This document shows positions 1,981 through 17,413 of a DNA stretch of 20,000 nt, piece by piece. A program made the position numbers and the translations under genes. The DNA is from an uncultured virus (IMG/VR IMGVR_UViG_3300031851_000015) (taxonomy: Duplodnaviria > Heunggongvirae > Uroviricota > Caudoviricetes), in the IMG/VR virus record IMGVR_UViG_3300031851_000015; one strand, given 5' to 3'. The notes below the pieces were generated by a model, which was not told where the DNA came from, made no database searches, and worked only from the letters and a program-made list of their open reading frames with translations. The stretch's first letter is position 1, and the number at the start of each line of letters is the position of its first letter.

Positions 1981-2154
1981 TTAATACTTACACTAAGGAT
2001 ACCAAAGTGATATCAATAACCCCCCGTGCTGTATACACAGAGAGTGTAGAGAGGATACTATCGGGGGGCATTTAGAGCATTCTCTTTCAAGTATCAGTAG
2101 AGAAGTCCTAGATATCACTTTGGCAGAGCCTTAGCAAAGTTATTAAGTTTATTC
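1981..2154 (-). ncRNA. Putative structured non-coding RNA (~174 nt), three-way junction
   Basis: Begins at the predicted +1 of the phage promoter. Nested inverted repeats: 2002-2014/2111-2123 (13 bp perfect), 1993-1998/2129-2134, 1981-1989/2137-2146 (one bulge), 2020-2026/2062-2068, 2034-2038/2044-2048, 2080-2085/2099-2104. No ORF on the minus strand. Confidence 0.6.
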
Positions 2155-2171
2155 TTAAACGTCAGGTATTA
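2149..2171 (-). promoter_or_regulatory. Putative phage RNAP promoter for the late/packaging region, TAATACCTGACGTTTAA|GAATAA
   Basis: Intergenic copy of the repeated motif, one mismatch in -17..+3 versus the 10702 copy; T7-like 17-nt upstream geometry; predicted +1 G at 2154. Confidence 0.85.
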
Positions 2172-2174
2172 TTT

Positions 2175-2456
2175 TCAGACAGAAATATCAAGAACTTCTC
2201 CTTGAAATAATCGTTGTCTTTCGTAGTAAGTATTGTTTTGTTGTTTTTGTAGAGTCATTAGCTCTTCAGCTTTTTCTCTCCAATTTTTTTCTAAAACCTT
2301 TTGAGCTCTTTTCTCTTGAGCTGTTATCATTTCTTCTCTAGTCTCTCGATAAGCACCATCTTCTGGCATCATAGCTTCATTATAAGGTTTAAAGACTATG
2401 TTGTCATGTGTTTCGAAAGGCATATTGGGAAGAGGCATGTGAGATATTAATGTCAT
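2175..2456 (-). CDS. Hypothetical protein (93 aa)
   Basis: Start reassigned to ATG at 2456 (MTLISHMPL) with an AGGA RBS; the longer track ORF runs through the hairpin and poly-T tract. Confidence 0.7.
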   Translation of the reverse strand: MTLISHMPLPNMPFETHDNIVFKPYNEAMMPEDGAYRETREEMITAQEKRAQKVLEKNWREKAEELMTLQKQQNNTYYERQRLFQGEVLDISV

Positions 2457-2470
2457 AGCTTTCCTATTTG

Positions 2471-2538
2471 AAAAAAAAAAAAATAAATCCCCACACCCCT
2501 CCAACCACCCCCAAAGGAGCAGCTAGAGAGATGTGGGG
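2471..2538 (-). terminator. Long hairpin (23 bp, 7 G-U pairs, UUUG loop) followed by a U13 tract
   Basis: Minus-strand RNA CCCCACAUCUCUCUAGCUGCUCC-UUUG-GGGGUGGUUGGAGGGGUGUGGGG-AUUUA-U13, directly after the stop at 2546. Confidence 0.75.
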
Positions 2539-2545
2539 GAAAAAT

Positions 2546-2908
2546 TTAATAAGAGAAGATACTATCTTTAATTTCTAGACCAACAAAGATATTACTTGCA
2601 ATATCATCTGTATCAAAGTCTGTTAGGTTTGTTTTAGCAAAAGCTTGTGTGCTGTTACCTAATGCATAACCTAGTTTTAAAGAAGGAGTAAATTCTTCTG
2701 CATCATCGTCATAGGTAATTACACCGTGTAGTGATACAGCATTTACACCAACAGTATAAGAACCATAGTAAGATACATCTTTAGTGCCTTCGTAATTAAC
2801 ACCTAGTGCAGCGTTATTATAAGCGAATTCTACGTGAGGTGTGATGGTTGGATACTCATCTACCTTTTCAATTTGTGCTGCTAGTGCAACGCCAACTAGT
2901 AAGTCCAT
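2546..2908 (-). CDS. Putative small outer-membrane beta-barrel-like protein
   Basis: Start reassigned to ATG at 2908 (MDLLVGVALAAQ) with an AAGGA RBS. Alternating hydrophobic/polar strands rich in Y/G/V (ALGVNY, SYYGSYTV, LKLGYAL, FVGLEI) and an aromatic C-terminus. Confidence 0.5.
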   Translation of the reverse strand: MDLLVGVALAAQIEKVDEYPTITPHVEFAYNNAALGVNYEGTKDVSYYGSYTVGVNAVSLHGVITYDDDAEEFTPSLKLGYALGNSTQAFAKTNLTDFDTDDIASNIFVGLEIKDSIFSY

Positions 2909-2927
2909 TTTATTTTCCTTTGTTAAA

Positions 2928-3134
2928 TTAGGGTATGTATCCCTCTGTACTGGCAACATAGCCAGCAAAATAAGAGTATCGAGGATCCCATCGGAGTTTA
3001 TACTCTTGCTTGTTAAATTCTACTACCATGATGTCATGGTCCATAGGGTCTTTTGAGCTTTGCATTTCAACAAAGTCTACGAGTAAGTAGCTAAGATTTT
3101 GGTTGTAAGGTATAAAAGTTTCAGTAGTATTCAT
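2928..3134 (-). CDS. Hypothetical protein (68 aa)
   Basis: ORF track; TAATG stop/start overlap with the upstream gene at 3134. Confidence 0.7.
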   Translation of the reverse strand: MNTTETFIPYNQNLSYLLVDFVEMQSSKDPMDHDIMVVEFNKQEYKLRWDPRYSYFAGYVASTEGYIP

Positions 3135-3544
3135 TACACTTCTTCCAATACAATAAACTTTACGTTATAAGGGTTAGGGAGCTTTTTAACATCATCTATA
3201 TGATCTTTAGAGACCACCATAACTTCTACTAAAGGCTCTTCTACAAACCCTACGTGATGACGAGTATCCCAACGATACATAGAAAAGCTTCTTTGACCAA
3301 TCTTACGATTAATATTAGAAAGTCTAGACTCATTAGGATCAGTGCAAATAATAGACATATCAGGGTGTTTCCATAAGTAATCTATTAAATGCTCTGTAAA
3401 CTCATCTACTCCATAAATAGCACAAACTCCTAACTCTCCGTACTTTTTGTAATAATCATCAGCAGAAGTTTTAGGGTTATGTTTTAGCTTTATCTTAGCG
3501 GGTCTACCTGCCTTCTTTTTAGTCGGCTGTTTCGTTGTTGTCAT
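3134..3544 (-). CDS. Hypothetical protein: basic N-terminus (KKKAGRPAK) plus a Rossmann-like domain
   Basis: Start reassigned to ATG at 3544 (MTTTKQP). CAIYGVDEFTEHLIDYL..IICTDPN..VMVVS resembles a degenerate beta-alpha-beta nucleotide-binding fold. Confidence 0.6.
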   Translation of the reverse strand: MTTTKQPTKKKAGRPAKIKLKHNPKTSADDYYKKYGELGVCAIYGVDEFTEHLIDYLWKHPDMSIICTDPNESRLSNINRKIGQRSFSMYRWDTRHHVGFVEEPLVEVMVVSKDHIDDVKKLPNPYNVKFIVLEEV

Positions 3545-3755
3545 TTGATTCCAATGATTCTTTGAGTTGAGCAACAATAGCATTACGACCTGCATCTACA
3601 TAAGCTAACTCTGCTTGAAGAGCCTGAGCTTTATTACCTGCAGTTTGAATTACAATTAACATGTTTTGTTGTGGTGGTGTCATGTCTTCAATAATATAAG
3701 ACTTATCGTCTAAAGTGATTGTTGCTTTTTGTTGTTCTTGAAGTTGTTCAGTCAT
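3519..3755 (-). CDS. Small coiled-coil protein (possibly DUF6447-like)
   Basis: TITLDDKSYIIEDMT...AGRNAIVAQLKESL pattern recalled from small marine phage proteins; the family call is tentative. Confidence 0.6.
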   Translation of the reverse strand: MTEQLQEQQKATITLDDKSYIIEDMTPPQQNMLIVIQTAGNKAQALQAELAYVDAGRNAIVAQLKESLESNDNNETAD

Positions 3756-3963
3756 TTTTTAATTTCTCTCTTAATTCTTGATATCCCCCAGTTAACTTTA
3801 ATACTACTGGTACAGTGCTCATTCCTAGATCTAACTTAATTAAATCCATATAGTGTGGGTTAATAGTAATGTCTTTATATACATAAGGAGTATTAGTACT
3901 ATCCAAAAGGTTAATTGCTTGAGTACAATGTCCACATTTCTCTCGCCCTAATACTAAATACAT
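3748..3963 (-). CDS. Glutaredoxin / NrdH-like redoxin
   Basis: CGHC active site, TVP cis-proline motif and GGY motif; 71 aa. Confidence 0.9.
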   Translation of the reverse strand: MYLVLGREKCGHCTQAINLLDSTNTPYVYKDITINPHYMDLIKLDLGMSTVPVVLKLTGGYQELREKLKND

Positions 3964-4130
3964 TATTCTTCCTCATCTTCTTCAGAGGCAGCTAAACAAG
4001 CCATAAACCCTGCTTCAAACAAAACATGAAATATATCATTTAATGAGTTATCAGAGTTTAAATCAAATCCATCTTCCATAAATTCATTAAAATACTCTAA
4101 TACTACAGCATCTAATTCTTCAGGTGTCAT
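3963..4130 (-). CDS. Very acidic 55-aa protein (not in ORF track)
   Basis: Manual translation MTPEELDAVVLEYFNEFMEDGFDLNSDNSLNDIFHVLFEAGFMACLAASEEDEEE*; its TAA overlaps the glutaredoxin ATG. Confidence 0.7.
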   Translation of the reverse strand: MTPEELDAVVLEYFNEFMEDGFDLNSDNSLNDIFHVLFEAGFMACLAASEEDEEE

Positions 4131-4323
4131 TTCTTTTTCCTGTTTTCATTTTATCTTTTTCTAACCAAATTAAGTGGCTAATATCACCACGGCTTAACCC
4201 AATGTCTTGAAGAGTTTGATCGTCTAAGCTATTAAGCTGTTTAATAGTCTCTCGATGTGCTCTCCAGGTTTTTAAGTATTTAACGTATCGAACAATAATA
4301 TGTTCTTTTAAGTATTTAAGCAT
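4120..4323 (-). CDS. DUF1127 (YjiS-like) small protein
   Basis: WRAHRETIKQLNSLDDQTLQDIGLSRGDI matches the DUF1127 signature (LxxLxDxxLxDIGLxRxDI); GGAG RBS before ATG at 4323. Confidence 0.85.
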   Translation of the reverse strand: MLKYLKEHIIVRYVKYLKTWRAHRETIKQLNSLDDQTLQDIGLSRGDISHLIWLEKDKMKTGKRNDT

Positions 4324-4501
4324 TATCACTCCAAGCTATGCACTTCCAATCGTGTGCAACCCATCTACGTTCTTCAACATAAGCAATACCAAATCCTATT
4401 TGTTTTAAACATTCTTCTTCAGATGCAAACAAAGCAGGATTAGCAAAACTTCTGCATTCGGTTCCTTCTATAGTACATGCTAATATAATTGCAGTAAACA
4501 T
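4316..4501 (-). CDS. Small Cys-containing hypothetical protein
   Basis: 61 aa, hydrophobic N-terminus (MFTAIILAC) and four Cys residues. Confidence 0.7.
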   Translation of the reverse strand: MFTAIILACTIEGTECRSFANPALFASEEECLKQIGFGIAYVEERRWVAHDWKCIAWSDNA

Positions 4502-4513
4502 TTATTTTCCAAT

Positions 4514-4627
4514 CTAAAATGGTAGCCACCCTAGCCAAGCAAGAAAGTATAGTCCGACCCACGTATTAACTATACTTCCTGCAATAAAGCCAAATGCATA
4601 CCCTATTAATTTAAAGGCATTATCCAA
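4514..4627 (-). CDS. Small membrane peptide (37 aa, not in ORF track)
   Basis: TTG start after GGAG; MDNAFKLIGYAFGFIAGSIVNTWVGLYFLAWLGWLPF*; fills the gap between neighbouring genes. Confidence 0.55.
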   Translation of the reverse strand: MDNAFKLIGYAFGFIAGSIVNTWVGLYFLAWLGWLPF

Positions 4628-4811
4628 TTTTATACTCCGATTTAAGGGCTATAATATCCATAATATATTCATTACAAGCATCCCAATTAGTAAATACTTT
4701 TTTAGTATTATTATAATCACCATCTTCAGTTCGACCACTATAGTTTAATACATAACCATTTTCACAAAAGTCTACAGAAAAATCAGATACTTCTTTTACA
4801 ATCTTATTCAT
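4620..4811 (-). CDS. Hypothetical protein (63 aa)
   Basis: ORF track; abuts the sulfotransferase stop. Confidence 0.7.
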   Translation of the reverse strand: MNKIVKEVSDFSVDFCENGYVLNYSGRTEDGDYNNTKKVFTNWDACNEYIMDIIALKSEYKIG

Positions 4812-5357
4812 TTATATCTCTCTTATATCATAATTAAATTTTTTAAAATCTTCTTCAAACAAGTTACTAATTAAACTTTTAGCATAATCGTCATAATAAT
4901 CTTTATAATTATACGTAGGTTGACTGTTAACTTTAGTTGAAGTTAATTTTACTTTAATGAAATCTTCTAGGTCTTTTAATTCTGTTTCTAATTTAAAAAA
5001 TTTTACTTTATTATTTTTATTAGATTTAATAAATTTATTTTGAGAAGTATTTATAGTCCAATTATCATTATCTACATCTTTCCAATAATCTTTAAAAGAT
5101 AGTTTACTAGAAGTATATAACCATTGGCTAACTGCCCTGCTATAAGGATTTCTTACTATTGTAATAAATTTATTAGTATTAATTTCAGATTCCCACATAT
5201 ATAATGGGTAATGTTGGGTTCCTATTTTAAAATTTAAATCTAAAGCATACCGATAAGGCTCTTGAATATTTTTTAATTGCATTCTACAATTATATTTTAA
5301 ATTAGTACCACTAGTTTTTGGTATATGAATAAAAGCCCATTTGTCTGTATATATCAT
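4812..5357 (-). CDS. Sulfotransferase family 2-like protein
   Basis: 5'-PSB motif FIHIPKTSGT, 3'-PB motif TIVRNPYSRAVS and C-terminal DFKKFNY. ATG at 5357 preferred over the track's TTG at 5375. Confidence 0.8.
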   Translation of the reverse strand: MIYTDKWAFIHIPKTSGTNLKYNCRMQLKNIQEPYRYALDLNFKIGTQHYPLYMWESEINTNKFITIVRNPYSRAVSQWLYTSSKLSFKDYWKDVDNDNWTINTSQNKFIKSNKNNKVKFFKLETELKDLEDFIKVKLTSTKVNSQPTYNYKDYYDDYAKSLISNLFEEDFKKFNYDIREI

Positions 5358-5358
5358 A

Positions 5359-5381
5359 TTATTCTTTAACGTCAACTATAT
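5359..5381 (-). promoter_or_regulatory. Degenerate phage RNAP promoter ATATAGTTGACGTTAAA|GAATAA
   Basis: -10..+3 identical to consensus (TGACGTTAAAGAA) and ATA at -15..-13 kept; CC>GT at -12/-11 where it overlaps the RNR stop codon. Confidence 0.5.
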
Positions 5382-7247
5382 TTCACAACCACCTGCACCG
5401 CAAGCTAGTGTTTGAGCACCTTCAGTTTCATCTTCAAATTCATAGTTAGGAAGCAAAGAAAAGTCTACTTCAGGGAAAGCATGAACCGCTTTAATATACT
5501 CTTGCTCAGTGCAAGGCGAATAAGGAGCTTGTGCATAAGTATGCTCACTGTAAGGCAAGAAACTAATGCCAGTTACGTTATCAAAGTTCTTGAATACCCA
5601 ATCACCTACCTCTAGCCATTCATGTTCTTTCACATAAATAGTTACTGAAACTGAGTGTTCAGACCACCAAGTTTGATAAGCCAACCAGTTTTCAAGCTGC
5701 TCGATAGCTGTTTGTTCGTTAGCTAGTGTAGCACCTGTTGGTGATTTAATTGGAAAGTAAAATACAGTAGTACGCTCTAAGTTCATAGCGTCTGGTTCGT
5801 TAGGTACACCTTGATCTTTAAGAAGTTGTGTTAAAGGATCATTGTTTGACTGACGAACAGATCGAATATAATAAGGGGCAAAGCGACCATGAATGCCACT
5901 AGCGCTGTCAACAAGCTGGCTAACAGTACCACTTGGCTTAACTGTAGTAATAGCTGTAGCGGGGTTAATAGAAAGCCTTTCGGAATAGTCTCTATTAGTT
6001 TGAATAGCAACATCTTTCATTTCCTTTAACAGCTTTGGATCAGGATTTTGTAACAATTTACAGTCCTGAATACCAGTTAAGCTTACACCTAGTAAGCTTT
6101 CTTCTTCACAATTCTTTTGCCATACTTTACGAACATATTTAAAGTCTGTTAGAGATGCTTGAAACGTACCAAGAATAGTAGCAATACGTACTTTACGCTT
6201 GAGATCTTCTTCTGTGTCATCTACTCGACATACTACTTCCGATAAGTTGCAGAGTTGTCCTGAACGCAATAAGATTTCTGCACAAGGATTAGTGCCACGA
6301 ATTTGTGAACTATCTCTGCGACCCCCGTTAGTATTGCGTTGAGCGCCATAGCGACTATAAATACCACGCTCACCAGAGCCTGATTTCTTAAGCGCTAACC
6401 ACTCTTCCATGAATACATCCATAGAAGGCTTTTGATCATAAGCAGCAGAGTTATTAGCCAAAGCACGTTGTGAGTTATTTTCCCACCACATACCTGATTT
6501 AGCATCCCGCACTTCTGGGTCTGTAAGATCACTTAAAGAAATTAAAGCAGAGCGGCGTACACCGCCTACTACAACAATCTCTGCAATTTTACACACAATA
6601 TCGTGTACTTCAATAGGGCGTAGTTTACGACCTGCTGCGTTCTTAAACGTAGTTGTTACAAACTCAAATAAACGTTTAAGAGGTTCAGGGCCAGAAGCCC
6701 GACCACCCATAGTTTTAAGACGAGCACCTTCTGGTCTAACTTTAGAATAATCCCATTCATGTTCATTTCCTAAATATAAATCTGCTACAAGTTTACGTAA
6801 TCCTTTTGCCCAACCTTCAGCACTATCTTCAATAGAAATAGTACGTTCTGTTTTAACAAATTGATCGTTAATAATAGGTAGTTTATTTACAGCACTAGCT
6901 TCAGCTGAAAAGCCTACACCTGTACCAGCCATAAGAATATAAAGTATTTCATCAAATACTCTAGGATGATCAACTTCTACAAAGCTACAGTTATAGCCTC
7001 GGAAGTGATTTTTTGATAGTGCGTCTCCAGCACTCCACATAGAGCGCATAGAGGGCATGACTTCTTTGTTGTATACAGCATCATGCACCTCTTGGAATTC
7101 CGCATCAGTAATAACATTATTACCAATTTGTTCTTTCCAAAATCCGATGAGTCTATCTACAGTTTCGTTCCACGTTTCGCGCCGATTCCAGTCAGCTATA
7201 AAACGTGAGTATCGTGAAAGATGGATAAAGTCTTCGTAAGCTTTCAT
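5376..7247 (-). CDS. nrdJ: Class II adenosylcobalamin-dependent ribonucleotide reductase (monomeric RTPR-like)
   Basis: YNCS, VVVGGVRRSA, GTNPCAEI (thiyl-radical Cys), CNLSE, TTVKPSGTVSQL and C-terminal CGAGGCEI. No beta-subunit gene in the window. Confidence 0.92.
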   Translation of the reverse strand: MKAYEDFIHLSRYSRFIADWNRRETWNETVDRLIGFWKEQIGNNVITDAEFQEVHDAVYNKEVMPSMRSMWSAGDALSKNHFRGYNCSFVEVDHPRVFDEILYILMAGTGVGFSAEASAVNKLPIINDQFVKTERTISIEDSAEGWAKGLRKLVADLYLGNEHEWDYSKVRPEGARLKTMGGRASGPEPLKRLFEFVTTTFKNAAGRKLRPIEVHDIVCKIAEIVVVGGVRRSALISLSDLTDPEVRDAKSGMWWENNSQRALANNSAAYDQKPSMDVFMEEWLALKKSGSGERGIYSRYGAQRNTNGGRRDSSQIRGTNPCAEILLRSGQLCNLSEVVCRVDDTEEDLKRKVRIATILGTFQASLTDFKYVRKVWQKNCEEESLLGVSLTGIQDCKLLQNPDPKLLKEMKDVAIQTNRDYSERLSINPATAITTVKPSGTVSQLVDSASGIHGRFAPYYIRSVRQSNNDPLTQLLKDQGVPNEPDAMNLERTTVFYFPIKSPTGATLANEQTAIEQLENWLAYQTWWSEHSVSVTIYVKEHEWLEVGDWVFKNFDNVTGISFLPYSEHTYAQAPYSPCTEQEYIKAVHAFPEVDFSLLPNYEFEDETEGAQTLACGAGGCEI

Positions 7248-7253
7248 AGTAAG

Positions 7254-7499
7254 CTACTCCTGTTCGTTTTCGTTAAAATATTTAAATGAATCCAACGGTT
7301 TAACCACTGGTTTTTTCTTTTTAGGTTTTGATTTAGGCTTTAATACCTCTGAATACCACATAGTGCTAATAACATCTAATGCGGCTTGTGGGTATAGTTT
7401 TCTAATATTAGGATTAAGAAGCCATTTATCAAAGTCTTCGTTTGAAAACCCTTTTTTCTTAAGCGAGTTATAAACCGCTGTCATTGTTTGAGTATACAT
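7254..7499 (-). CDS. Hypothetical basic protein (81 aa)
   Basis: ORF track; TAATG coupling at 7499. Confidence 0.7.
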   Translation of the reverse strand: MYTQTMTAVYNSLKKKGFSNEDFDKWLLNPNIRKLYPQAALDVISTMWYSEVLKPKSKPKKKKPVVKPLDSFKYFNENEQE

Positions 7500-7753
7500 T
7501 AATGCATATTCCTTTTTGATTGTAAGTGTGAATTCATTATCGTGTCTGCAAAATAATAAAACCTGTCACCTAACTCTGTACTTTGTTCGTTAATGTTGTG
7601 AAAAGAATTAACTATCTTTTCTATAAAGTCCATTACATTAGGATTAATTTCTGATACATCTGCACCACCATCTAGTAGTTGCAATATTATAGACATCCAA
7701 AACTCGTCTGGTGGAGAATCAAACTCGCTCAAAGTTCTCTTCGTTGAATTCAT
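7499..7753 (-). CDS. Hypothetical protein (84 aa)
   Basis: ORF track; overlaps the helicase 3' end. Confidence 0.7.
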   Translation of the reverse strand: MNSTKRTLSEFDSPPDEFWMSIILQLLDGGADVSEINPNVMDFIEKIVNSFHNINEQSTELGDRFYYFADTIMNSHLQSKRNMH

Positions 7754-9356
7754 CGGAACCCTTTCTTAATCTGCCTGTGTCAAAGTTATAAAACATAGAA
7801 CCTGATGGGCCAGTTAAGCCTGTGTATCTACATTTAAGAACTTTAGTCCTAATAGTATTTCTTTCTTCTTCACTTTCTGAACCTACGTTTCTAGCAAAAG
7901 CAATAATATCCATACTAATTTGTTTAATACTACCAGAGCCACGAATATCATCCATAGAGGGTAGTTTACCTTCTTCAAAGCTTTTACCTTTGTTATCTGT
8001 TTTACGCAAATGGCTAATAAGACCTAGCCATACGTTATACTTCTTAACCAACCGTAAAAGGTCATTCATAATTTTATCTATCGCTTCATTTCCGGTGAGT
8101 CCTTCAGTTCCTTCAGAAGCAAGTATAGTAATGTGGTCCACAAAGAGATACTTACAACCGCTAAGACACATATACTCAAGAAAATCCATGATGGAGCCAT
8201 CAGATATAGAACCTTGATGATCAAGGACCATAACACGGTTATCACTGAAAATAGTATCAAATCCTTCTTTAAGTTCATCTATAGGGATCTCCTCTTTGGC
8301 AGGGTTTCTACTAAGAGCCATTCCAGACATTTTTCTTGCAGTTTCAGCGGGACTTTCTTCCAGACTGATAAGGCCGATTTTATCTTCAGTTCTTTCAAGA
8401 AGATGTACAGCAATTTCCCGAAGAAGCGTACTTTTACCTGATCCGGTTCCGCTAGTCCAGAGAGTGATTTCTCCGAATCGCATACCCTTAAGCTTCTCAT
8501 TAAGACCTTCCATAAAGTCGGGATAAGGTACAGATTCAATTTCATTGTAAGCCTCCAGTTGAGTCCATAGTTCATCTTTAGTAAGAATACCTGCAGGTGT
8601 GTAGTCTACAGCATCGTAGATCACTTTTAATACTTTGTCAGGGTCTTTTATCCAAAGATCACTAGCATCTTTCTCTGATGATTTAGCTATCTTAATCTTA
8701 TCATAACCTATTATACGAGCAGCTTCTTTTACTGCTTTTTCGCCAGCTTCGTCCTTATCAAGCCATAAAATAACTTCATCAAAGTTACGAATCCAATCAC
8801 GACATTCGATAAGATCTCGTATAGAACTAGCACTACGAATACTAACCACAGGATAAAAAGTTTTATACTTCTTATACCAAGCTGATTGGACTGCCATAGC
8901 ATCTAGCTCACCCTCCGTTATTACTAATCTTTTACCACCGTTGTAGAGTTGTTGTCCAAATAGTCCACCTTTAACGGTACCACATGAGGTAAAGGTTTTG
9001 GGTAGATCTCTGACTTTGTAACCGGAGATCTTGTTGCCCACATAATAAGGATAGTAATGGCTAGAAATATCTCCGTCGATATTATAAGATACTTTAACAC
9101 CGTAATGCTCCGATACTTGTTTATAAATGTTTCTTTCTTTAAAGCCACGTATCGGATAGTCTTCTGTAATTTCTTCTACCGTATCATTATTAACTGCTAC
9201 CCATTGTGTTTCTACTGGTTGCATGTTGCCCTCCTTTGGGGCAGGGAAAGAGGCTCTACAAGAAAAACAAAATGCAGAGCCTTCTTCATAAATTTGTTTG
9301 GCATCTGAACTGCCACACTTTTCACATGGTTGATTACGAGTGACTATTGTCCCCAT
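7719..9356 (-). CDS. T7 gp4-like DNA primase-helicase
   Basis: N-terminal Zn finger CEKC..CFSC, TOPRIM motifs (ITEGELDA, LDKDEAG), Walker A GTGSGKST, FVDH, SHLRK and DIRGSGSIKQ. Confidence 0.95.
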   Translation of the reverse strand: MGTIVTRNQPCEKCGSSDAKQIYEEGSAFCFSCRASFPAPKEGNMQPVETQWVAVNNDTVEEITEDYPIRGFKERNIYKQVSEHYGVKVSYNIDGDISSHYYPYYVGNKISGYKVRDLPKTFTSCGTVKGGLFGQQLYNGGKRLVITEGELDAMAVQSAWYKKYKTFYPVVSIRSASSIRDLIECRDWIRNFDEVILWLDKDEAGEKAVKEAARIIGYDKIKIAKSSEKDASDLWIKDPDKVLKVIYDAVDYTPAGILTKDELWTQLEAYNEIESVPYPDFMEGLNEKLKGMRFGEITLWTSGTGSGKSTLLREIAVHLLERTEDKIGLISLEESPAETARKMSGMALSRNPAKEEIPIDELKEGFDTIFSDNRVMVLDHQGSISDGSIMDFLEYMCLSGCKYLFVDHITILASEGTEGLTGNEAIDKIMNDLLRLVKKYNVWLGLISHLRKTDNKGKSFEEGKLPSMDDIRGSGSIKQISMDIIAFARNVGSESEEERNTIRTKVLKCRYTGLTGPSGSMFYNFDTGRLRKGSDEFNEENFERV

Positions 9357-9528
9357 CATCTGCTCCTATATGTGCTGTGAATTTAGACATTTCTTGAAAC
9401 AATAAAAAGAATATAATACTTGTAATAGGATTAACTAAGTGATAACCCATAATTTCTGAGACTAAAGTAAAGGCTAATAAACCTACACTTACAATCCACA
9501 GGGCTACTGCCATTGGTGATACTTCCAT
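9334..9528 (-). CDS. Small two-TM membrane protein
   Basis: 64 aa with two hydrophobic segments; translationally coupled to its neighbours. Confidence 0.65.
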   Translation of the reverse strand: MEVSPMAVALWIVSVGLLAFTLVSEIMGYHLVNPITSIIFFLLFQEMSKFTAHIGADDGDNSHS

Positions 9529-9992
9529 TATAAAAACCTTTTCTTTAATACATTAACATACCTCTTGGTTTTTGTAGTAGGAAACTCTTTTGGTACAAAC
9601 CTAATAGCAGCAATTTGTCTATTGTAAAACCTAGGTGTAACATTGTCAGGTAAATACTCTGTCATACAATCAGATAACATTTGAAGGTAAGCTTCTGCAT
9701 AATACAGTCCACCTTTAGTTTTATAAAGGTCTACAATCTCAAATCTAAAGTTATCTTTTTTGTACTTGCCAATATCTTGTTTTAAAGCTTTAGAAGAACC
9801 TACATAGGTTTTCCATGTCATTGCTTTACCATAAGTCCTAGACTTCTTTTTACCACCATGCCAAAATTGTTTCTTTCCAATATAATACTGTTTAGTAGCT
9901 AAATTTTCTATACAATATACAAAGCCAAACCAATCACTAGGATCAAACTTTTTATTATATTCCCAGTGACCCTTATCTGTTAACATAAGCAT
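9528..9992 (-). CDS. GIY-YIG family endonuclease
   Basis: GFVY...YYIGKK motif pair, YVGSS, FRFEI, conserved E (YYAEAY) and FYN. Start probably ATG at 9992 or 9986. Confidence 0.8.
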   Translation of the reverse strand: MLMLTDKGHWEYNKKFDPSDWFGFVYCIENLATKQYYIGKKQFWHGGKKKSRTYGKAMTWKTYVGSSKALKQDIGKYKKDNFRFEIVDLYKTKGGLYYAEAYLQMLSDCMTEYLPDNVTPRFYNRQIAAIRFVPKEFPTTKTKRYVNVLKKRFL

Positions 9993-10686
9993 TATACTTT
10001 TCTTTTGGCAGAATAAAATGATCGTCTTGTTTACGCCAGATATGCAATAGCTTGCCATTCGCTAACATATGAGCGTGACCTTCATCAATGTAAAAATCAT
10101 TGTATGCCTTACAAACAATTTCTTTTCGATGCGCAGGTAACGTTGTACCTTCAAGCATTTTTTCAGCTTTCTTAGGTCCAATTTTAGGAATACCTGGGAT
10201 ATTGTCTACACTATCACCCATAAGTAATTGTTTCCAATAGAAATAATCAGCATAGTCTTTGTCAATTATATAAGTTTCTTTTTTACGAGGATTGTAGTGA
10301 AGACCTTCAATGCAGTCTAAGTCCTTATCTACAGTAACAATTGCATAAGGTTGTTTACATTCGTTGGCCCAAATGCGAACCATGTCATCAGCTTCACAAT
10401 TATCTGTTAGTATACAACCTTCATACTCGTTTACAACATCTGATTTCAAATCTAAGAACCAGTCTGGTCTTGTAGATTTTGACTTTGATCGATTAGCTTT
10501 ATACTCAGGGTATACGTCTACTCTAAAGTTATCAGGACCACCTAAGGCCATAACATAATCAGTTGTAAATAAGTCTTCTAGTATAGCAGTAAAAAGACTA
10601 TCAAAGTTTTCTCGTGCTTCTTCTTTGGTTTCTGCACCCCATATACTCATGTATAGTAGTACATCACCATCAACAATAGCTAACAT
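9973..10686 (-). CDS. T7 gp6-like 5'-3' exonuclease
   Basis: IVDGD, FR..YPEYKANR, EADD, DKDL and GDSVDNIPGIPKIGPKKA (H3TH) motifs. Confidence 0.93.
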   Translation of the reverse strand: MLAIVDGDVLLYMSIWGAETKEEARENFDSLFTAILEDLFTTDYVMALGGPDNFRVDVYPEYKANRSKSKSTRPDWFLDLKSDVVNEYEGCILTDNCEADDMVRIWANECKQPYAIVTVDKDLDCIEGLHYNPRKKETYIIDKDYADYFYWKQLLMGDSVDNIPGIPKIGPKKAEKMLEGTTLPAHRKEIVCKAYNDFYIDEGHAHMLANGKLLHIWRKQDDHFILPKEKYNAYVNR

Positions 10687-10701: not shown

Positions 10702-10724
10702 TTGTTCTTTAACGTCAGGTATTA
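10702..10724 (-). promoter_or_regulatory. Putative phage RNAP promoter TAATACCTGACGTTAAA|GAACAA
   Basis: 23 nt (10701-10723) identical to 17390-17412; intergenic, directly upstream of the exonuclease RBS (AAGGAG); predicted +1 at 10707. Confidence 0.88.
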
Positions 10725-12054: not shown

Positions 12055-12309
12055 TTAATCAGTGTAGTTGGGTTTAACTTTGTAGTGCTCATGAATACTC
12101 TTCTTTACGTTAGATTTCATACGTTTAACTTCTAACGCGTGTTGATACTCAGGTTTATCTAATAAAACTTCCATAAACTCTTCAATAGCTTTTACTCTAG
12201 CTTCTAAAGATTTTTTAGGAAAATTACCAAAAGGGTCATGCATATTAGCCATCGATCTTTCTTTAGCTCTATTTCTTTCTTCATCGTCAAAAGGTCTAAT
12301 GAACGTCAT
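12055..12309 (-). CDS. Hypothetical protein
   Basis: ORF track; the ATG at 12309 is properly spaced from AGGAG. Confidence 0.7.
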   Translation of the reverse strand: MTFIRPFDDEERNRAKERSMANMHDPFGNFPKKSLEARVKAIEEFMEVLLDKPEYQHALEVKRMKSNVKKSIHEHYKVKPNYTD

Positions 12310-14137
12310 AATAGTCATCTCCTATTTTACAATCACCACAAGTCATAATGTTAATACCATATTGTTTAGGGGCGTCTTCAAAGCATTTAATAATGATTTC
12401 TTTAGCTTGTTTTGCCTCGTTTTCTTTAACTTCTACAGTATGTTCATCATGATAAAACAACAAATGTTTAAAATCAATCTTATTTTCTTTTAAACGTTTA
12501 TCAATAAGGTCAACAGTAGCTTTCATAACTACTGCTTCAGCACCTTGAATAAGATAGTTAAGAGCTTTATGTTTTTCAGATGGATCTAAACATATCTTTC
12601 TATCATCCAAGCCTGGAATAAATCCTTGTTTTTCTATTAATCCATTGACTTTATCAACTAGCTTAGCTAAAGCAGGTAAAGCTTTTTTATATCGATGCAT
12701 AGCTGATCTTGCTTGACTTACTGTTTGATCAATATACCCACTAAGTTTTTGAGCACCAGCACCATAAAGATAAGCAAAGATAAATCGTTTAGCTTGATCA
12801 CGGGTGCAGCCAATAATATCTGCATTCATTTGATGGATATCACCGTTAAGCACTGTATCAGTAAACTTAGAATCATCCATGTAGTGTGCTAAGAGACGAA
12901 GCTGACAAGCAGCTGAATCAGCACTAACAAGTTTATAGCCGCTAGGGGTAACAAAAAGTCTCCTAAATTCGGGACCAAGGGTTGCTTTTCCTGAAGGGAG
13001 GTTAGCAATGATTTTGTGGGTTTGTCGAAAAGTAGGTGTACCAATATTAAAAACGTCACCATGTAACCTACTATTATTATCCACATGCTCAAACCACCCT
13101 TCAAGTATTGATTTACGAGATCTAAGAGTATAATACTCCATTAATGATTGTCCCACTTCCCCAAGTGGTTCCAAGGAATTATCGGAGAGTTTTGGAGATA
13201 CCTTGATGAATTCTCCATTGACTCTTTTCCAATTCCATTCGTCCGGTTTCCATCCGATTGAATAGAGGTAACGTTTAACCGTATCAGTATTACCAATGTC
13301 ACCAATAACAAAATCAATCCGAGAGTAATTAGCCCAAACGGGGCAAGTATCAACAGTGGTGCCATCAGGAAGCCCAAACCAACGCTGTATGTGCGAACTA
13401 AGTCTTCCTGCCTTCGTGTAAGTCGGTTTCTTTTCGATTGCATAGCGTTTTCCTGTAATTGGTTCGTGTTCTTTCTTTGTATCAGGATCAACTACTTTTA
13501 CAGAAGCACTTAGTTTAGGATTAATAAAGTCAGAAATAATCTTCATCTTTTTATCAATTGTAACTAATAAATCTTCTGCGGCTGATTTATCAAATTTCCA
13601 ACCATTCTGGCATTGCTCTACCATAATCTTATCTAGATTCATTTCAGAGCGTAATGCTTTTAATACTGCTTTTGACTTAGTATTTTTAACGTAAGTCTGT
13701 AATTCTTTTAACAAGTACTTGTAAACTTTAGTACCAAGACGAACATCTTGTTGCATGTATACAAACATTTCTTCGTTAAATTCTTCAAAGCCCGATGAAT
13801 AATCCCCTTTATTATCGTTAAAGAATTCACCCCATATCTTTAAAGAATGGCCAAATCCAAATCTACGATAGTTAAGGACTTGAGACATAACTTTAGTACA
13901 ATGTACTGTGGCTTTAGGTTGCCAACCTGTTAGTTTAGTTAAAGCAGGAATATCATAGCCAAAAGCATTATGAGCCACAATAGTATCTGCTTTATCTAGT
14001 AGTTCTAAGAACTCATTAAGCTGATGAGGTCGAAACCAGTATTCTTTACCAGTATCGACATCGATAGCACCAGCGCAATGAAACTTAGACAGTTTTGGCA
14101 GAAGATTATCTGCCTCTATGTCAAAGACTAGTCTCAT
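12296..14137 (-). CDS. polA: Family A DNA polymerase with 3'-5' exonuclease (T7 gp5-like)
   Basis: ExoI FDIEAD, ExoII HNAFGYD, ExoIII YMQQD; motif A SADSAACQLRLLAHY, motif B RDQAKRFIFAYLYG, motif C YHDE. Confidence 0.95.
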   Translation of the reverse strand: MRLVFDIEADNLLPKLSKFHCAGAIDVDTGKEYWFRPHQLNEFLELLDKADTIVAHNAFGYDIPALTKLTGWQPKATVHCTKVMSQVLNYRRFGFGHSLKIWGEFFNDNKGDYSSGFEEFNEEMFVYMQQDVRLGTKVYKYLLKELQTYVKNTKSKAVLKALRSEMNLDKIMVEQCQNGWKFDKSAAEDLLVTIDKKMKIISDFINPKLSASVKVVDPDTKKEHEPITGKRYAIEKKPTYTKAGRLSSHIQRWFGLPDGTTVDTCPVWANYSRIDFVIGDIGNTDTVKRYLYSIGWKPDEWNWKRVNGEFIKVSPKLSDNSLEPLGEVGQSLMEYYTLRSRKSILEGWFEHVDNNSRLHGDVFNIGTPTFRQTHKIIANLPSGKATLGPEFRRLFVTPSGYKLVSADSAACQLRLLAHYMDDSKFTDTVLNGDIHQMNADIIGCTRDQAKRFIFAYLYGAGAQKLSGYIDQTVSQARSAMHRYKKALPALAKLVDKVNGLIEKQGFIPGLDDRKICLDPSEKHKALNYLIQGAEAVVMKATVDLIDKRLKENKIDFKHLLFYHDEHTVEVKENEAKQAKEIIIKCFEDAPKQYGINIMTCGDCKIGDDYYDVH

Positions 14138-14318
14138 CAACTTTCCTCATTTCTTTAGCCATACTATAAAGAAGAAACGCCATTTGATCTCCATTGTTTT
14201 CATGAATATTTTTTAGCCAAAACTGTGAAGCCCAATACTCTAAAGAGTCTGCTAGGCTCGAATAGCTAGTTTCATCCATTTCAAAACTTAATTTTTCAAG
14301 ATCTACGGTATTGCTCAT
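14121..14318 (-). CDS. Hypothetical protein (65 aa)
   Basis: ORF track; GGAGG RBS. Confidence 0.72.
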   Translation of the reverse strand: MSNTVDLEKLSFEMDETSYSSLADSLEYWASQFWLKNIHENNGDQMAFLLYSMAKEMRKVDETSL

Positions 14319-14454
14319 CCATTACCTCCACTTCGGCTTCTTTATAAAAATCATATGCCTCGTACGCTCTGGCTACTGCACTTGCAATAGAATGATCGGG
14401 ATGTTGGTTACGATACATTCTTGCTATTCTCTTAATAAAACTATAATCAATCAC
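14296..14454 (-). CDS. Hypothetical protein (52 aa, not in ORF track)
   Basis: GTG start after AGGAG; MIDYSFIKRIARMYRNQHPDHSIASAVARAYEAYDFYKEAEVEVMDEQYRRS*. Confidence 0.6.
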   Translation of the reverse strand: MIDYSFIKRIARMYRNQHPDHSIASAVARAYEAYDFYKEAEVEVMDEQYRRS

Positions 14455-14731
14455 CTAATAGATCTCCTAATAATAAATGTGCATCATTAATCTTTTTAAA
14501 TACTTCATCTACTGTATGAGATTCATAGTCTCCAGTTTCATGCAAGTAATGCAACGCAGAAGATAAAGACTTTTGTACTCGTTTTAAATCTGGTTTAACT
14601 TTTTCCAAAGCTTCTTTTTGCTCATCATAACCTGAATCCCAATTATCAATTTCTTCTTGAGTTAACATTTTAGTACCTCCAAAGTCCATATTTTCTACAA
14701 AATCAGGCCACGTATTCGTATTCTGTGTCAT
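14447..14731 (-). CDS. Hypothetical protein
   Basis: ORF track; GGAG RBS; a possible internal start follows GGAGG at MLTQEE. Confidence 0.68.
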   Translation of the reverse strand: MTQNTNTWPDFVENMDFGGTKMLTQEEIDNWDSGYDEQKEALEKVKPDLKRVQKSLSSALHYLHETGDYESHTVDEVFKKINDAHLLLGDLLGD

Positions 14732-14915
14732 CATCGTACTCCATAATTACTTCAACACATTCTACTCTTGCATTTCTTTTTTCTGCTTTCATTTTCTGAA
14801 AATATCTTTGTATTTCTTCTAAACTAAAAGAACTATCTATTTCTTCCCAGTAGCGCTCAACACAACCACACTCTTTAGTTGTTTCAAGAAATTCATGTAT
14901 AGTGTAATATATCAT
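14703..14915 (-). CDS. Hypothetical protein (70 aa)
   Basis: ORF track; AGGAG RBS; ATGA overlap with the DUF3310 gene. Confidence 0.7.
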   Translation of the reverse strand: MIYYTIHEFLETTKECGCVERYWEEIDSSFSLEEIQRYFQKMKAEKRNARVECVEVIMEYDDDTEYEYVA

Positions 14916-15454
14916 TTAGGTAGATCTCCTAATACTTTTACTAGACGATTAGCATACCATTCAATCTTTTTTGCATCTTGCAAGGCAGCGTCCTTTTTAC
15001 CTATTCTCATAGCATACTTAAAAATATGACCTAACAAATGAGCCTTAACGCCTCTGTGTTGTTTAAGAATATACTCCATAAGGTCTATATACTCTAGCCC
15101 TTCAGGGAATCTTTCGTAAGCAGAGTTAGGTATCATTTTGTAGTGTTTAGGATTAATAATAGCATCTTGGTCATCATCTGACATTTTATCAAAGTCACCA
15201 TGAAAATCTACTTCTTGCATTTCTTTTATAATACGTTTTTCTACTCTGTTCATTAATAAGTACCTCGACCAATCTTCAATATATTCTTTATTATTAGCGG
15301 AATAAACTAACACATCATTAAAATCAAAAACTTTAATGAGAGAGTTATGTTGGTTAGATTGCCAATAAGACCAACAATCAATAGCTCTTTGCCATTCTTC
15401 GCCATCATAATCTGGATTTTGCATAGCAGGAGTTCGATAAACTCTATATTGCAT
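14912..15454 (-). CDS. DUF3310-domain protein (T7 gp1.7 / SaV-like, putative nucleotide kinase) with an N-terminal extension
   Basis: DAIINPKHY...IDLME...GHIFKYAMRIGKKD..QDAKKIEWY matches the DUF3310 pattern. Confidence 0.8.
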   Translation of the reverse strand: MQYRVYRTPAMQNPDYDGEEWQRAIDCWSYWQSNQHNSLIKVFDFNDVLVYSANNKEYIEDWSRYLLMNRVEKRIIKEMQEVDFHGDFDKMSDDDQDAIINPKHYKMIPNSAYERFPEGLEYIDLMEYILKQHRGVKAHLLGHIFKYAMRIGKKDAALQDAKKIEWYANRLVKVLGDLPK

Positions 15455-15623
15455 TAGCTTTCCTTTTTTGTATATAACGTTTTAATTCAGACCTATTTTT
15501 AAAGCCATAAACTTGAGCAGCTCTTTGTTCTGCATCATAGCGAGAATAACCTGCGTCATACTCAAGTATTGCTGCTCTCTCTTCGTATAGATCATCTAGT
15601 TGTTCAGCTGATAGTTCGTCCAT
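15444..15623 (-). CDS. Hypothetical protein with an EERAAILEYDAG motif (59 aa, not in ORF track)
   Basis: MDELSAEQLDDLYEERAAILEYDAGYSRYDAEQRAAQVYGFKNRSELKRYIQKRKANAI*; GAGG RBS. Confidence 0.72.
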   Translation of the reverse strand: MDELSAEQLDDLYEERAAILEYDAGYSRYDAEQRAAQVYGFKNRSELKRYIQKRKANAI

Positions 15624-15984
15624 TAAAAACCTCTATAACTGGCTTATCGCCACTTTGAGTTAAAACCGCCATATCTGCACTATAAATTCTTTCTTCTGTA
15701 TCTGTAAATACAAAGTGTTCGTGCTTATATGGATTATAAGTAACAAACCTGCGATTTCCACTTGGAATAATATAATCTAACAACTCTTCACCTCGTACAA
15801 AAGCATGTACATTTTTTACTTTTTCTTTTAAAACTTTTAATCGTCCTGCTTGCCGTACAGCAAACGTTGGTGATATAATCACTACACCGAGAGTATGACG
15901 GATTACTTTTCCGTAGTCATCTTTCTGTCGGGACTTAACTGAAAATAGTTGTTTATGTAAGTTGTAATATACTTCAATTTTCAT
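15604..15984 (-). CDS. Conserved phage protein of unknown function
   Basis: Motifs VYYNLHK..FSV, AGR..VL...KNVHAFVRG and VTYNPYK, recalled as widespread in phages. Confidence 0.75.
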   Translation of the reverse strand: MKIEVYYNLHKQLFSVKSRQKDDYGKVIRHTLGVVIISPTFAVRQAGRLKVLKEKVKNVHAFVRGEELLDYIIPSGNRRFVTYNPYKHEHFVFTDTEERIYSADMAVLTQSGDKPVIEVFNGRTIS

Positions 15985-16178
15985 GAATCATACTCTTTTA
16001 CTAGTTGTGATTTTCTACTAATTTGCCAAATGTCTATAGAACTTATATCACTCTCTTTAATAAGCATTTCTGCTATTTCTTCTGCTTTGTCTATACTAGA
16101 AGAATAATCATAAAATCCCCCATTAACTTCAATTTCGTAATAAAATTCTTCTATAATTTCTTCATCCTGCATGTTCAA
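15981..16178 (-). CDS. Acidic hypothetical protein (65 aa)
   Basis: ORF track; GGAGG RBS; ATGA overlap. Confidence 0.68.
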   Translation of the reverse strand: MNMQDEEIIEEFYYEIEVNGGFYDYSSSIDKAEEIAEMLIKESDISSIDIWQISRKSQLVKEYDS

Positions 16179-16602
16179 TACAAGCCTCCACTGCTTCTGC
16201 TAAAGTTTCATGAATTTCTGTTGCCATTGCTGTCATAAAAGGATTTAAAGTATCAATAGGAGCTACCCACATAATAATTACTTTATTCTTCATATGAGCA
16301 AACATTACTTCCGCAGCAGTACCTTGACCTTTAACTCCTGGTAGGTCTCGCATATCAACAAGTACTACTTCACAGCGAGCTATATCTCTTAAATCTTGTT
16401 TAAAGATTCTGTTAGCAATATTGCGATCCAATCCCCTATCATTAAGTATTTGCTCATGATAGCTAATGCGCCTAGTAGGATCAAGCACTTTAATATCAGA
16501 GTCTCCAAGTTTATCGTGAGCATACCAACGCCATGATTTCATGTCTTGAGCTGTTAAACCCGCCATAGGCCCAGCTAAATATACACCTCTACACAGTTCC
16601 AT
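16162..16602 (-). CDS. Nucleoside 2-deoxyribosyltransferase / nucleotide N-hydrolase-like protein
   Basis: VYLAGPM, VLDP, DLRDIARCEVVLV and GTAAE (catalytic Glu) motifs. Confidence 0.85.
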   Translation of the reverse strand: MELCRGVYLAGPMAGLTAQDMKSWRWYAHDKLGDSDIKVLDPTRRISYHEQILNDRGLDRNIANRIFKQDLRDIARCEVVLVDMRDLPGVKGQGTAAEVMFAHMKNKVIIMWVAPIDTLNPFMTAMATEIHETLAEAVEACIEHAG

Positions 16603-16753
16603 CTTTTTTCATTACCTCATAGTTGTTCAACATTGCAATACACATGTCTACTGTTTCTAAACTAACATTCATTGTTCTACCCCAAGTAATCTCTCTTTTA
16701 CTATCAGAGTGGTGAATGACAATAATTCCGTTTGATATTCTTCTGTAATACAT
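16589..16753 (-). CDS. Hypothetical protein (54 aa, not in ORF track)
   Basis: MYYRRISNGIIVIHHSDSKREITWGRTMNVSLETVDMCIAMLNNYEVMKKDGTV*; GAGG RBS. Confidence 0.62.
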   Translation of the reverse strand: MYYRRISNGIIVIHHSDSKREITWGRTMNVSLETVDMCIAMLNNYEVMKKDGTV

Positions 16754-16761
16754 AAGACCTC

Positions 16762-16799
16762 TTAATAAAATTGGGAGAGACCCAAACTGAATCTCTCCC
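16762..16799 (-). terminator. Hairpin after ssb (weak terminator or mRNA-stabilising stem)
   Basis: Minus RNA GGGAGAGAUUC-AGUUU-GGGUCUCUCCC-AAUUUUAUU, an 11-bp stem including 2 G-U pairs. Confidence 0.65.
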
Positions 16800-16807
16800 T
16801 AAGTTAA

Positions 16808-17341
16808 TTAAAATGACAAGTCGTCTTCTAGCTCACTTGATGATGAAAACTGATCTTCATCTACTACTTGGTTATCTGCTACTTTTACTACTTCCATGTC
16901 TACCATTGCAAAGTCATCTTCACGAGGCTTTGGTGTATATTCTTTAAGAGTAGTTACCTGAATAGCCATAAGCATTGAAGCTATACCTTTACGCCCTGCA
17001 ATCTCATAGTCATACTGATAAATACGAATGTTACCTACTGAACCATTACCTAAAATATTAGGGTCAATAGGGCTTAAATCACCCCCTACTAAGTTAACGG
17101 GATTTTGTGGTTCTCCGTTAGCTTTCTTTGTTTTCTTCTTAAGACTCGCTTTATAAAACATTCCTTTATCATCTTCATCAGGTTTAACGTTGATGTTAAG
17201 ATCTTTCCACTCTTTAGCCTGTTTCTTGTTACGAGTACGAATCTGAACTTCCCATGTAGGGTTATCAGCATTGAACCGTGCATTAGGCTTTTTAGGGTCA
17301 AGTTTAGCAAAGAATAGTTCTACGTTATTAAGAATAGCCAT
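16808..17341 (-). CDS. Single-stranded DNA-binding protein (T7 gp2.5-like)
   Basis: OB-fold-like pattern (LGNGSVGNI, AIQVTTLKEY) and an acidic C-terminal tail ending in Phe (ELEDDLSF); first gene after a phage promoter. Confidence 0.8.
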   Translation of the reverse strand: MAILNNVELFFAKLDPKKPNARFNADNPTWEVQIRTRNKKQAKEWKDLNINVKPDEDDKGMFYKASLKKKTKKANGEPQNPVNLVGGDLSPIDPNILGNGSVGNIRIYQYDYEIAGRKGIASMLMAIQVTTLKEYTPKPREDDFAMVDMEVVKVADNQVVDEDQFSSSSELEDDLSF

Positions 17342-17390
17342 AATATTTATTTCCTCTTGGATATATGTAAATTAAGTTTTATTTGAACAA

Positions 17391-17413
17391 TTGTTCTTTA
17401 ACGTCAGGTATTT
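17391..17413 (-). promoter_or_regulatory. Putative phage RNAP promoter AAATACCTGACGTTAAA|GAACAA
   Basis: Identical 23-mer to the copy at 10701-10723; intergenic, upstream of ssb; predicted +1 at 17396. Confidence 0.88.

Follow-up and report, generated by a model that had tools for sequence, protein, structure and literature searches.

We analysed a 20,000-nt stretch of DNA from an uncultured virus of the Caudoviricetes (IMG/VR record IMGVR_UViG_3300031851_000015), hereafter the window, which encodes on its minus strand a compact, 717-aa single-subunit RNA polymerase (RNAP) of the T7 family (17605-19758; PF00940, E 1e-86) and carries a ~20-base repeat in four copies, all on the minus strand. 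We consider it very probable that this repeat is the cognate middle and late promoter of the 717-aa enzyme. The bases of the motif at -11, -8 and -7 vary among relatives with the polymerase residues equivalent to T7 748, 758 and 746, respectively, according to T7's own code, which fixes both the enzyme and the +1 position. This residue-base covariation bears out the preliminary description of the window, in which the motif had been put forward as the promoter of this polymerase in the same +1 register. Judged by sequence and predicted structure, the pair appears to work like the T7 promoter system while departing from it in the -7 to -3 region and in the N-terminal domain of the enzyme.

Among the direct-repeat families of the window, this repeat ranks first. 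Allowing three mismatches at most, WAATACCTGACGTTWAAGAA matches at exactly four places, compared with a mean of 0.01 and a largest count of 1 in 200 dinucleotide shuffles; since the pattern was derived from these same copies, the relatives serve as the independent test. All four copies were found at the coordinates and on the strand given in the preliminary description. Copy 1 (17391-17413, minus strand) reads AAATACCTGACGTTAAA followed by GAA, with a predicted +1 at 17396 that lies 55 nt from the ATG of the first gene behind it, which encodes a Gp2.5-like single-stranded DNA-binding protein (SSB; 16808-17341, minus; phrog_112, E 7e-10). Copy 2 (10702-10724, minus) reads TAATACCTGACGTTAAA followed by GAA, with a predicted +1 at 10707; AAGGAG comes next, and the ATG of a 5'-3' exonuclease gene (9973-10686, minus; Pfam) is located 21 nt beyond the predicted +1. 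Copy 3 (5359-5381, minus), ATATAGTTGACGTTAAA followed by GAA with a predicted +1 at 5364, is degenerate in having T at -11. It overlaps the stop codon of a reductase gene, and a sulfotransferase-like open reading frame (ORF) follows after a 7-nt leader; the site itself is conserved, reading ATATAGCTGACGTTAAA in the sibling record G002, where it is intact and intergenic. Copy 4 (2149-2171, minus), TAATACCTGACGTTTAA followed by GAA with a predicted +1 at 2154, is of a late type with T at -3, and a 122-aa ORF ahead of the gene for the terminase large subunit lies 314 nt on. The copies begin 1-3 bases past the stop codon of the preceding gene or, at 5359-5381, contain that stop, in agreement with their earlier placement at stop codons. 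Contigs of four of the 24 public sequencing runs listed cover the window and some bridge 2154 and 17396, although contigs are uninformative on starts, strand and level.

The sibling record G002 (60.8 kb), which shares 94-97% nucleotide identity with the window in five blocks, was used as a stand-in for the whole genome; it is 89% complete and lacks the counterpart of 12290-16161 of the window and of some short stretches. It contains six coding-strand copies of the motif: one each ahead of ssb, the exonuclease gene, the genes that follow the reductase and the terminase region, and two ahead of the portal operon. Three further related records (G003, G004 and G006) have additional copies before tail genes and after PhoH. 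The search for copies ahead of structural genes that had been proposed was thus answered by copies before portal, tail and PhoH-region genes, and this distribution agrees with the proposed middle and late placement. The position of the copies downstream of the RNAP gene, also pointed out earlier, holds for all four in the window but not as a rule: one copy lies directly upstream of the RNAP gene in G006 (G006:C1:2174), without a counterpart in the closer relatives of the window, and G002 has one antisense copy (C1:44790, plus) inside a long repeat-rich gene. The upstream copy in G006 would mean positive feedback on the RNAP. T at -3 was found in 10 of 30 pattern matches in five records, all ten in the packaging and structural region, and might mark a distinction between middle and late sites.

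In the cultured roseophage DSS3_VP1, all 16 pattern matches are on the coding strand in the same register, and 15 of them have G at +1; the motif there reads TAATAGG(GTG/TTA/TGA)CGTTAAA, with GAGGG from +1, while in G005 it reads TACCAGGGGACGTTAAA followed by GAA. The motif shares with the class of T7-like promoters (Zhu et al. 2025) a length of ~21 bp, multiple co-oriented copies, an AT-rich -17 to -13 region, C at -7 together with R746, and G at +1. The scans that we ran found no such motif for a distant RNAP group (L060-L064, ~32% identity).

The relatives yielded 212 loci that cover the specificity loop of the small enzyme and represent 83 loop types (P0014 gave no locus), six of which have no ssb in the locus. 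For the 77 loop groups with a downstream ssb, the best site 30-115 nt before ssb was chosen by scoring the flanks and leaving -12 to -7 unscored. The equivalent of copy 1, the most conserved site of the lineage, was called in 71 of these groups, and six fell below the score cut. Aspartate or glutamate at the residue equivalent to T7 748 occurs with C at -11 in 32 of 36 loop groups, and lysine or arginine with G in 23 of 25; leucine occurs with T (4/4), as does asparagine (2/2), the latter unlike T7. Arginine at the 746 equivalent accompanies C at -7 in 48 of 51 groups, while other residues do so in none of 20. Among the 63 groups of equal loop length, lysine at the 758 equivalent is found with A at -8 without exception (40/40), arginine with C (10/11), glutamine with T (3/3) and aspartate or glutamate with G (5/5), and arginine at the 756 equivalent with C at -9 (5/5). 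The glutamine-T and arginine-C pairings are T7's own. The published rules for T7-like phages, in which aspartate goes with C and asparagine or lysine with G at -11, and arginine with C at -7 (PMC11880802), match the D-C, K-G and R-C pairings of the window's lineage. When 580 residue-base pairs were scanned without guidance, 598/-11 (numbered on the window enzyme) ranked first, 607/-8 fourth and 596/-7 seventh.

We also followed these pairings on a FastTree tree of 76 polymerase proteins from which the specificity loop had been removed (L226 was dropped as too short, and L140 retained its loop). The tree provides seven independent acidic/basic pairs, of which ~5 to 5.5 behave as predicted and none in the opposite way (sign test, p 0.03-0.06), and five pairs for the 746 position, 3.8 of them as predicted (p 0.125). 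Six further contrasts all point in the predicted direction, each too small for significance, and cross-position controls on the tree gave no signal. Single branches show the same coupling: L215, nested in the clade of the window, changed from glutamate to leucine together with a change from C to T, and the sister groups L155 and L153 combine glutamate with C and lysine with G, respectively.

The same comparisons bear on two explanations that do not involve a phage polymerase. The motif could be an operator at which a DNA-binding protein from phage or host, a repressor or an activator, acts on the host RNA polymerase; its core holds a partial palindrome, TGACGTTA, with eight self-complementary matches, and relatives encode a helix-turn-helix protein immediately upstream of the RNAP gene (L040:1767-2156). 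The motif is, however, strand-specific, and neither G006 (TGACCTTA) nor distant clades (for example GGGCGGAATAAT) have kept the palindrome, although they retain position and register. An operator would not be expected to covary with the polymerase loop, and TTAA-N7-TTAA, the CtrA-type pattern, is matched by none of the four sites, so that we regard an operator as extremely improbable. Equally little speaks for a promoter of a host sigma factor with CTGACG as its -35 element. CTGACG does resemble TTGACA, but no minus-strand sigma-70 site starts at any copy among the best 60 of 77 in the window; these 77 sites are not in excess over shuffled sequences (73 +/- 9), and the core varies between clades far beyond a sigma element. 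We therefore give next to no credence to this explanation, and the assignment of the motif to the 717-aa polymerase is the one that we follow below.

The 717-aa polymerase retains the catalytic motifs of T7 RNAP: D376, K497, Y505, H633, H655-D656 and the C-terminal DFAFA correspond to T7 D537, K631, Y639, H784, H811-D812 and FAFA. By alignment, its specificity loop spans ~590-618, with R596, E598, I605 and K607 at the positions of T7 R746, N748, R756 and Q758. The protein is 56% identical over its full length to that of DSS3_VP1 and DSS3_PM1 and at most ~32% identical to those of other GenBank phages among the matches listed. Its predicted model (pLDDT 95.6) superimposes on the T7 promoter complex (1cez) with a Z score of 37.1 and a root-mean-square deviation (rmsd) of 3.5 over 664 aligned residues, and contains both the strands of the specificity loop (590-601/604-618) and those of an intercalating hairpin (97-106/109-120). 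A basic stretch at ~17-25 aligns near the AT-rich recognition loop of T7 (93-101), in a gapped part of the alignment. The alignment further indicates an insertion in the fingers and the loss of T7 ~3-70, ~160-205 and part of the thumb. The model does not contain a full T7 N-terminal domain, as helix 56-70 continues into helix 77-93. We take T7 ~160-205 to be the range of subdomain H. Many representatives of the family are ~690-760 aa long, indicating that these departures from T7 are a family trait. Some of the RNAP matches (L058:6455-9409, L131-L134 and L139-L140) span 500-800 extra bases, which suggests introns or inteins, and the gene for a second polymerase, described next, is interrupted as well in G032.

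The lineage encodes a second T7-family polymerase outside the window, so that the pairing of the motif with the 717-aa enzyme had to be tested. Gene 28 of DSS3_VP1 (L001:21242-25633), annotated as a 1463-aa 'minor head protein-like protein', consists of a MuF domain (PF04233) and a C-terminal PF00940 domain; the GenBank names for such fusions cover the head-protein part only. The ortholog in G002 (C1:19052-23407; L102:2053-6408, minus) keeps all catalytic motifs, and its model (pLDDT 81.7) has the T7 RNAP fold (Z 31.9, rmsd 3.9, 520 aligned residues). The fusion is present in 18 of 28 records searched and in all eight records that are at least 90% complete. A real and intact polymerase by its domains, catalytic motifs and fold, it might read the motif instead of the 717-aa enzyme or in addition to it, and in the clade of the window its loop also has arginine and glutamate at the 746 and 748 positions. 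A comparison of 22 rows argues otherwise. The 748 equivalent of the fusion is acidic in 19 rows, yet the base at -11 is C in nine, G in nine and T in one, while the small enzyme has glutamate in exactly the nine rows with C. At the 746 equivalent, the fusion contradicts the -7 rule in two clades, with serine where -7 is C and arginine where -7 is G. A separate motif, nearly constant across clades, lies in the early region only. Reading of the first motif by the fusion is consequently very unlikely in our view, though slightly less so than an operator or a sigma promoter, and we retain the 717-aa enzyme as its reader.

Several points weigh against this assignment. The loop groups are often close kin, which inflates the counts; the same set of sites also served to train the flank model, and L025 is a visible mis-call of the site. 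Seven of the 12 highest-ranked pairs of the unguided scan are not expected contacts, probably reflecting kinship, and the tree contrasts are singly underpowered (p 0.03-0.5). Exceptions occur at -11, with glutamate opposite T (L124 and L216) or A (L143 and L145), lysine or arginine opposite T (L220 and L119) and tryptophan with four different bases. In the comparison with the fused polymerase, the sites come from loop-group representatives and thus not always from the same record. Because T7 ~3-70 and ~160-205 have no counterpart by alignment and its thumb is incomplete, the 717-aa enzyme may need a cofactor. A published screen found no activity for ~70% of the phage polymerases that had been mined (PMC11475235).

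The early-region motif reads AAAAAA-GTGAGAAAA-N5-G(C/T)ATCTATAAT, or GTGAGAAAA-N5-GCATCTATAAT, and is located between the tape-measure and small polymerase genes, with one to four coding-strand copies each in G002-G006, DSS3_VP1 and DSS3_PM1 (for example at G002:C1:7600 and 5093, minus, and at 35795 and 36242 in DSS3_VP1). It lies upstream of the small polymerase gene in all but one of the matches listed, the exception being a three-mismatch match in L091, and it has no match in the window. We discarded AATCCTCGTTTAG near 19970, a different candidate for an early promoter, as it is the coding end of the upstream gene. Clades that differ in the first motif have nearly the same second motif. The GTGAGA and TATAAT elements of the second motif are 13 nt apart, which is too close for sigma-70 as defined by the scan tool (16-18 nt). 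The simplest reading is that it is an early promoter for a virion-borne MuF-fused polymerase, although it may instead belong to a host sigma factor with another spacing.

From the copies, their placement, the catalytic motifs, the fold and the covariation that we observed, we infer a course of binding, melting, initiation and timing. The polymerase gene would probably be switched on earlier from the second motif, read most likely by the MuF-fused T7-type polymerase, which would be borne in the virion and has its gene outside the window. The 717-aa RNAP would then use the first motif as a double-stranded promoter. By analogy with T7, its specificity loop is expected to read the major groove, with E598 at C at -11, R596 at the -7 pair and K607 at the -8 pair. 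The N-terminal basic loop would bind the AT-rich -17 to -13 region, and the hairpin at 97-120 would open TTWAA at -5 to -1, placing the predicted RNA starts at the G of GAA at 17396, 10707, 5364 and 2154. Transcripts from the motif would include middle genes for SSB, replication and nucleotide metabolism and late genes for packaging, portal and head, and tail. We think it likely that the two T7-type polymerases form such a relay, in which the MuF-fused, head-carried enzyme switches on the 717-aa enzyme.

Judging by its gene content, the source is an uncultured long-tailed marine phage related to the Naomiviridae. Its nearest cultured relatives are DSS3_VP1 and DSS3_PM1 (Naomiviridae, Noahvirus arc), long-tailed roseophages in which uracil replaces thymine (PMC8323127). 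Seven of 41 ORFs in the window match DSS3_VP1, and the gene set and synteny are shared with Noahvirus, including the DNA polymerase, primase-helicase, exonuclease, terminase large subunit and PhoH. In G002, 20 of 80 ORFs match DSS3_VP1, among them the terminase large subunit, the portal, the tape measure and the MuF-RNAP fusion (62%). The long tail is predicted from genes, namely matches in G002 to tape-measure, distal tail and tail-terminator proteins. A T7-type short-tailed structural module with internal virion proteins, as in the Autographiviridae, is absent from G002, which has a tape-measure tail module and the MuF protein in its place. The placement near the Naomiviridae is based on pairwise identity (45% for the DNA polymerase to DSS3_VP1) and an RNAP tree. 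On this basis, and with the dCTP deaminase and dTMP phosphatase unmatched, we do not file the phage as a member of this family. Relatives were sought in 185,579 prokaryote genomes and none were found. The window encodes a DUF1127 protein (4120-4329), a family frequent in alphaproteobacteria and compatible with a roseobacter-type host, and a 140-aa ORF without a family match (2546-2968). Side observations in G002 include two long genes of Thr/Ser-rich and Ala/Thr/Ser-rich repeats in the structural region (G002:C1:39680-45985) and, between the portal and MuF-RNAP genes, an ORF resembling Na+/phosphate cotransporters (PF02690; L027:3438-3884; L028:3438-3884, minus).

The relationship to DSS3_VP1 raises the question of uracil DNA. 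The dCTP deaminase and dTMP phosphatase of DSS3_VP1 have been characterised (PMC12697855); neither has a match in the window or in the 89% complete G002. The deaminase family is found in 7 of 16 related records, and relatives without the deaminase and phosphatase genes have been reported too (PMC12669031). ThyX, ThyA and dUTPase are absent from all 16 related records (six of them complete), which is compatible with uracil DNA but no proof of it. A nucleoside 2-deoxyribosyltransferase-like protein (PF05014) is encoded two ORFs from the SSB gene (16162-16602); that it acts as a nucleotide N-glycosidase removing dTMP in place of the phosphatase of DSS3_VP1 is speculation. We hold uracil DNA in this particular phage to be possible, if a little less likely than ordinary DNA. 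Considerably more tentative, and in our judgement rather doubtful as a whole, is the combination of the polymerase relay, a stripped-down 717-aa enzyme lacking the domain that T7 refolds for promoter exit, and uracil-substituted DNA, cultured relatives included. Uracil-substituted DNA inhibits T7 polymerase, whose binding to the promoter and initiation can be lowered as much as 30-fold by one dU/A pair (PMC6486633). A T7-type enzyme adapted to uracil DNA would, if true, contrast with T7.

The minus strand carries 38 of the 41 called ORFs of the window. In addition to the genes described above, a family A DNA polymerase is encoded in the middle region (12296-14140, minus; PF00476), and the exonuclease gene is followed by those for a GIY-YIG endonuclease, a primase-helicase (7719-9359) and a class II ribonucleotide reductase (5376-7247), all assigned by Pfam. 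The sulfotransferase-like ORF just behind copy 3 (4812-5357, minus; weak matches) is an insertion between 9-base near-repeats; neither G002 nor the contigs of three public runs (joint 4823-5350) contain it. The 122-aa ORF behind copy 4 (1472-1840, minus) has no Pfam match and is 39% identical to the gene upstream of the terminase in DSS3_VP1; its position makes it a candidate small terminase subunit. The gene for the terminase large subunit (3-695, minus; PF03237) runs off the window, which contains its N-terminal part, and the G002 protein is 71% identical to that of DSS3_VP1.

Between copy 4 and the 122-aa ORF, we noticed a conserved, predicted three-way junction (1980-2146, minus; z -5.3) with 49 pairs, 12 of which are changed on both sides among the six sequences compared. 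It would form the 5' end of the predicted copy-4 transcript and is a candidate structured leader or non-coding RNA. As another gene takes the place behind it in G004, a free RNA is favoured over a leader specific to one gene. Rfam gave no match for the window or for this structured region. Ahead of the RNAP gene lies a GC-rich hairpin with a short spacer and a T15 run (19892-19945, minus), which is kept in relatives, and a second long GC-rich hairpin with a spacer and a T run is located at 2471-2537 (minus). Both T runs are 13-15 long, and the two hairpins, conserved in relatives, mark the early/RNAP and middle/late borders, respectively. Each is a candidate terminator or attenuator with an unusually long T run.

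Our search found no paper that assigns a promoter or a second polymerase to the Naomiviridae or tests one, and no study of transcription in this phage group; subscription papers were mostly outside its scope, and a printed assignment is possible. The term 'RNA polymerase' is absent from the main texts of PMC8323127, PMC12669031 and PMC13037479. The repeat of DSS3_VP1 and DSS3_PM1 has been printed, unassigned, ahead of many other repeat groups in a sheet of genomes without a definite prediction (PMC11880802, supplement). Promoter finding has been described as the limiting step for using new phage polymerases (PMC11475235), and the lengths in the part of a review table compared here are 779-906 aa. 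The family described here, with enzymes of 690-760 aa, is shorter, and its promoter, +1 and residue-base code have unusually strong comparative support. An enzyme of the T7 type that works without subdomain H would bear on promoter exit.

Compared with T7, the polymerase shares the fold, the catalytic motifs, the specificity loop and the intercalating hairpin (PDB 1cez), and the promoter shares TAATA at -17 to -13, C at -7, G at +1, many co-oriented copies and a copy directly before a gp2.5-like SSB gene. The enzyme is shorter (717 vs 883 aa), as the alignment shows no counterpart of the N-terminal ~70 residues, of ~160-205 or of part of the thumb, and the promoter differs in having GTTAAA in place of ACTATA at -6 to -1. 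The phage is long-tailed and probably has a second polymerase that acts earlier. CACTA at -7 to -3, found in over half of 1067 T7-like promoters (PMC11880802), is replaced by CGTTA or CGTTT, which leaves the motif without one defining feature of the T7-like class.

The preliminary description had also proposed a different specificity core and, with it, a new orthogonal pair. The core does differ from that of wild-type T7 and T3 (two of six bases shared at -12 to -7), and orthogonality to these two is likely. Both claims lose force against SP6 (four of six) and K1E (five of six), whose sites were taken from our own motif scan, and against a laboratory-evolved T7 variant. SP6 and K1E/K1-5 (Molineuxvirinae) share TGAC or GGAC at -10 to -7 and GAA at +1 to +3, and predicted K1E-type promoters include TAGCTGAC and TACCTGAC (PMC11880802, supplement); they differ at -6 to -1 and -17 to -15. 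Since the SP6 and K1E loops are unlike that of the window RNAP, the similar cores presumably arose separately. The T7 variant (CPR set; 748S, 756T and 758K among other changes) reads CCTGA at -12 to -8 in an otherwise wild-type T7 promoter (PMC11880802, Table 2), so that from -17 to -7 this promoter and the copies at 10702 and 2149 have the same sequence. Variant and window enzyme (I605, K607) both have lysine at the 758 position and, at 756, a small beta-branched residue; the variant differs in its T7 scaffold, in serine instead of glutamate at 748 and in keeping ACTATA and GGG. This convergence supports the assignment and at the same time weakens the orthogonality claim, because CCTGA at -12 to -8 was already known and only GTTAAA at -6 to -1 is unusual. 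As an orthogonal part, the pair is thus less new than first proposed. A natural loop that converges on a laboratory-evolved reader of CCTGA offers a clean check of the recognition code.

DSS3_VP1 and DSS3_PM1 have the motif in the same register, TAATAGG..CGTTAAA with GAGGG from +1, and the same early motif. DSS3_VP1 differs from the window in lysine at the 748 equivalent with G at -11, in its G+C content (47% vs 35%) and in its reductase (class I vs class II). As a cultured phage, it makes the predictions testable now. The proposed relay has a likeness in phage N4, where a virion RNAP acts first and RNAPII follows. A further likeness is the Thermus phage P23-45, which has a virion RNAP fused to the tape-measure protein (PMC10770324). 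The common element is a polymerase that, fused to a virion protein or itself carried in the virion, is proposed to activate a second phage polymerase, each of the two having a motif of its own. In contrast to both, the two enzymes of the relay predicted here are T7-type single chains, and the carrier is a MuF minor head protein.

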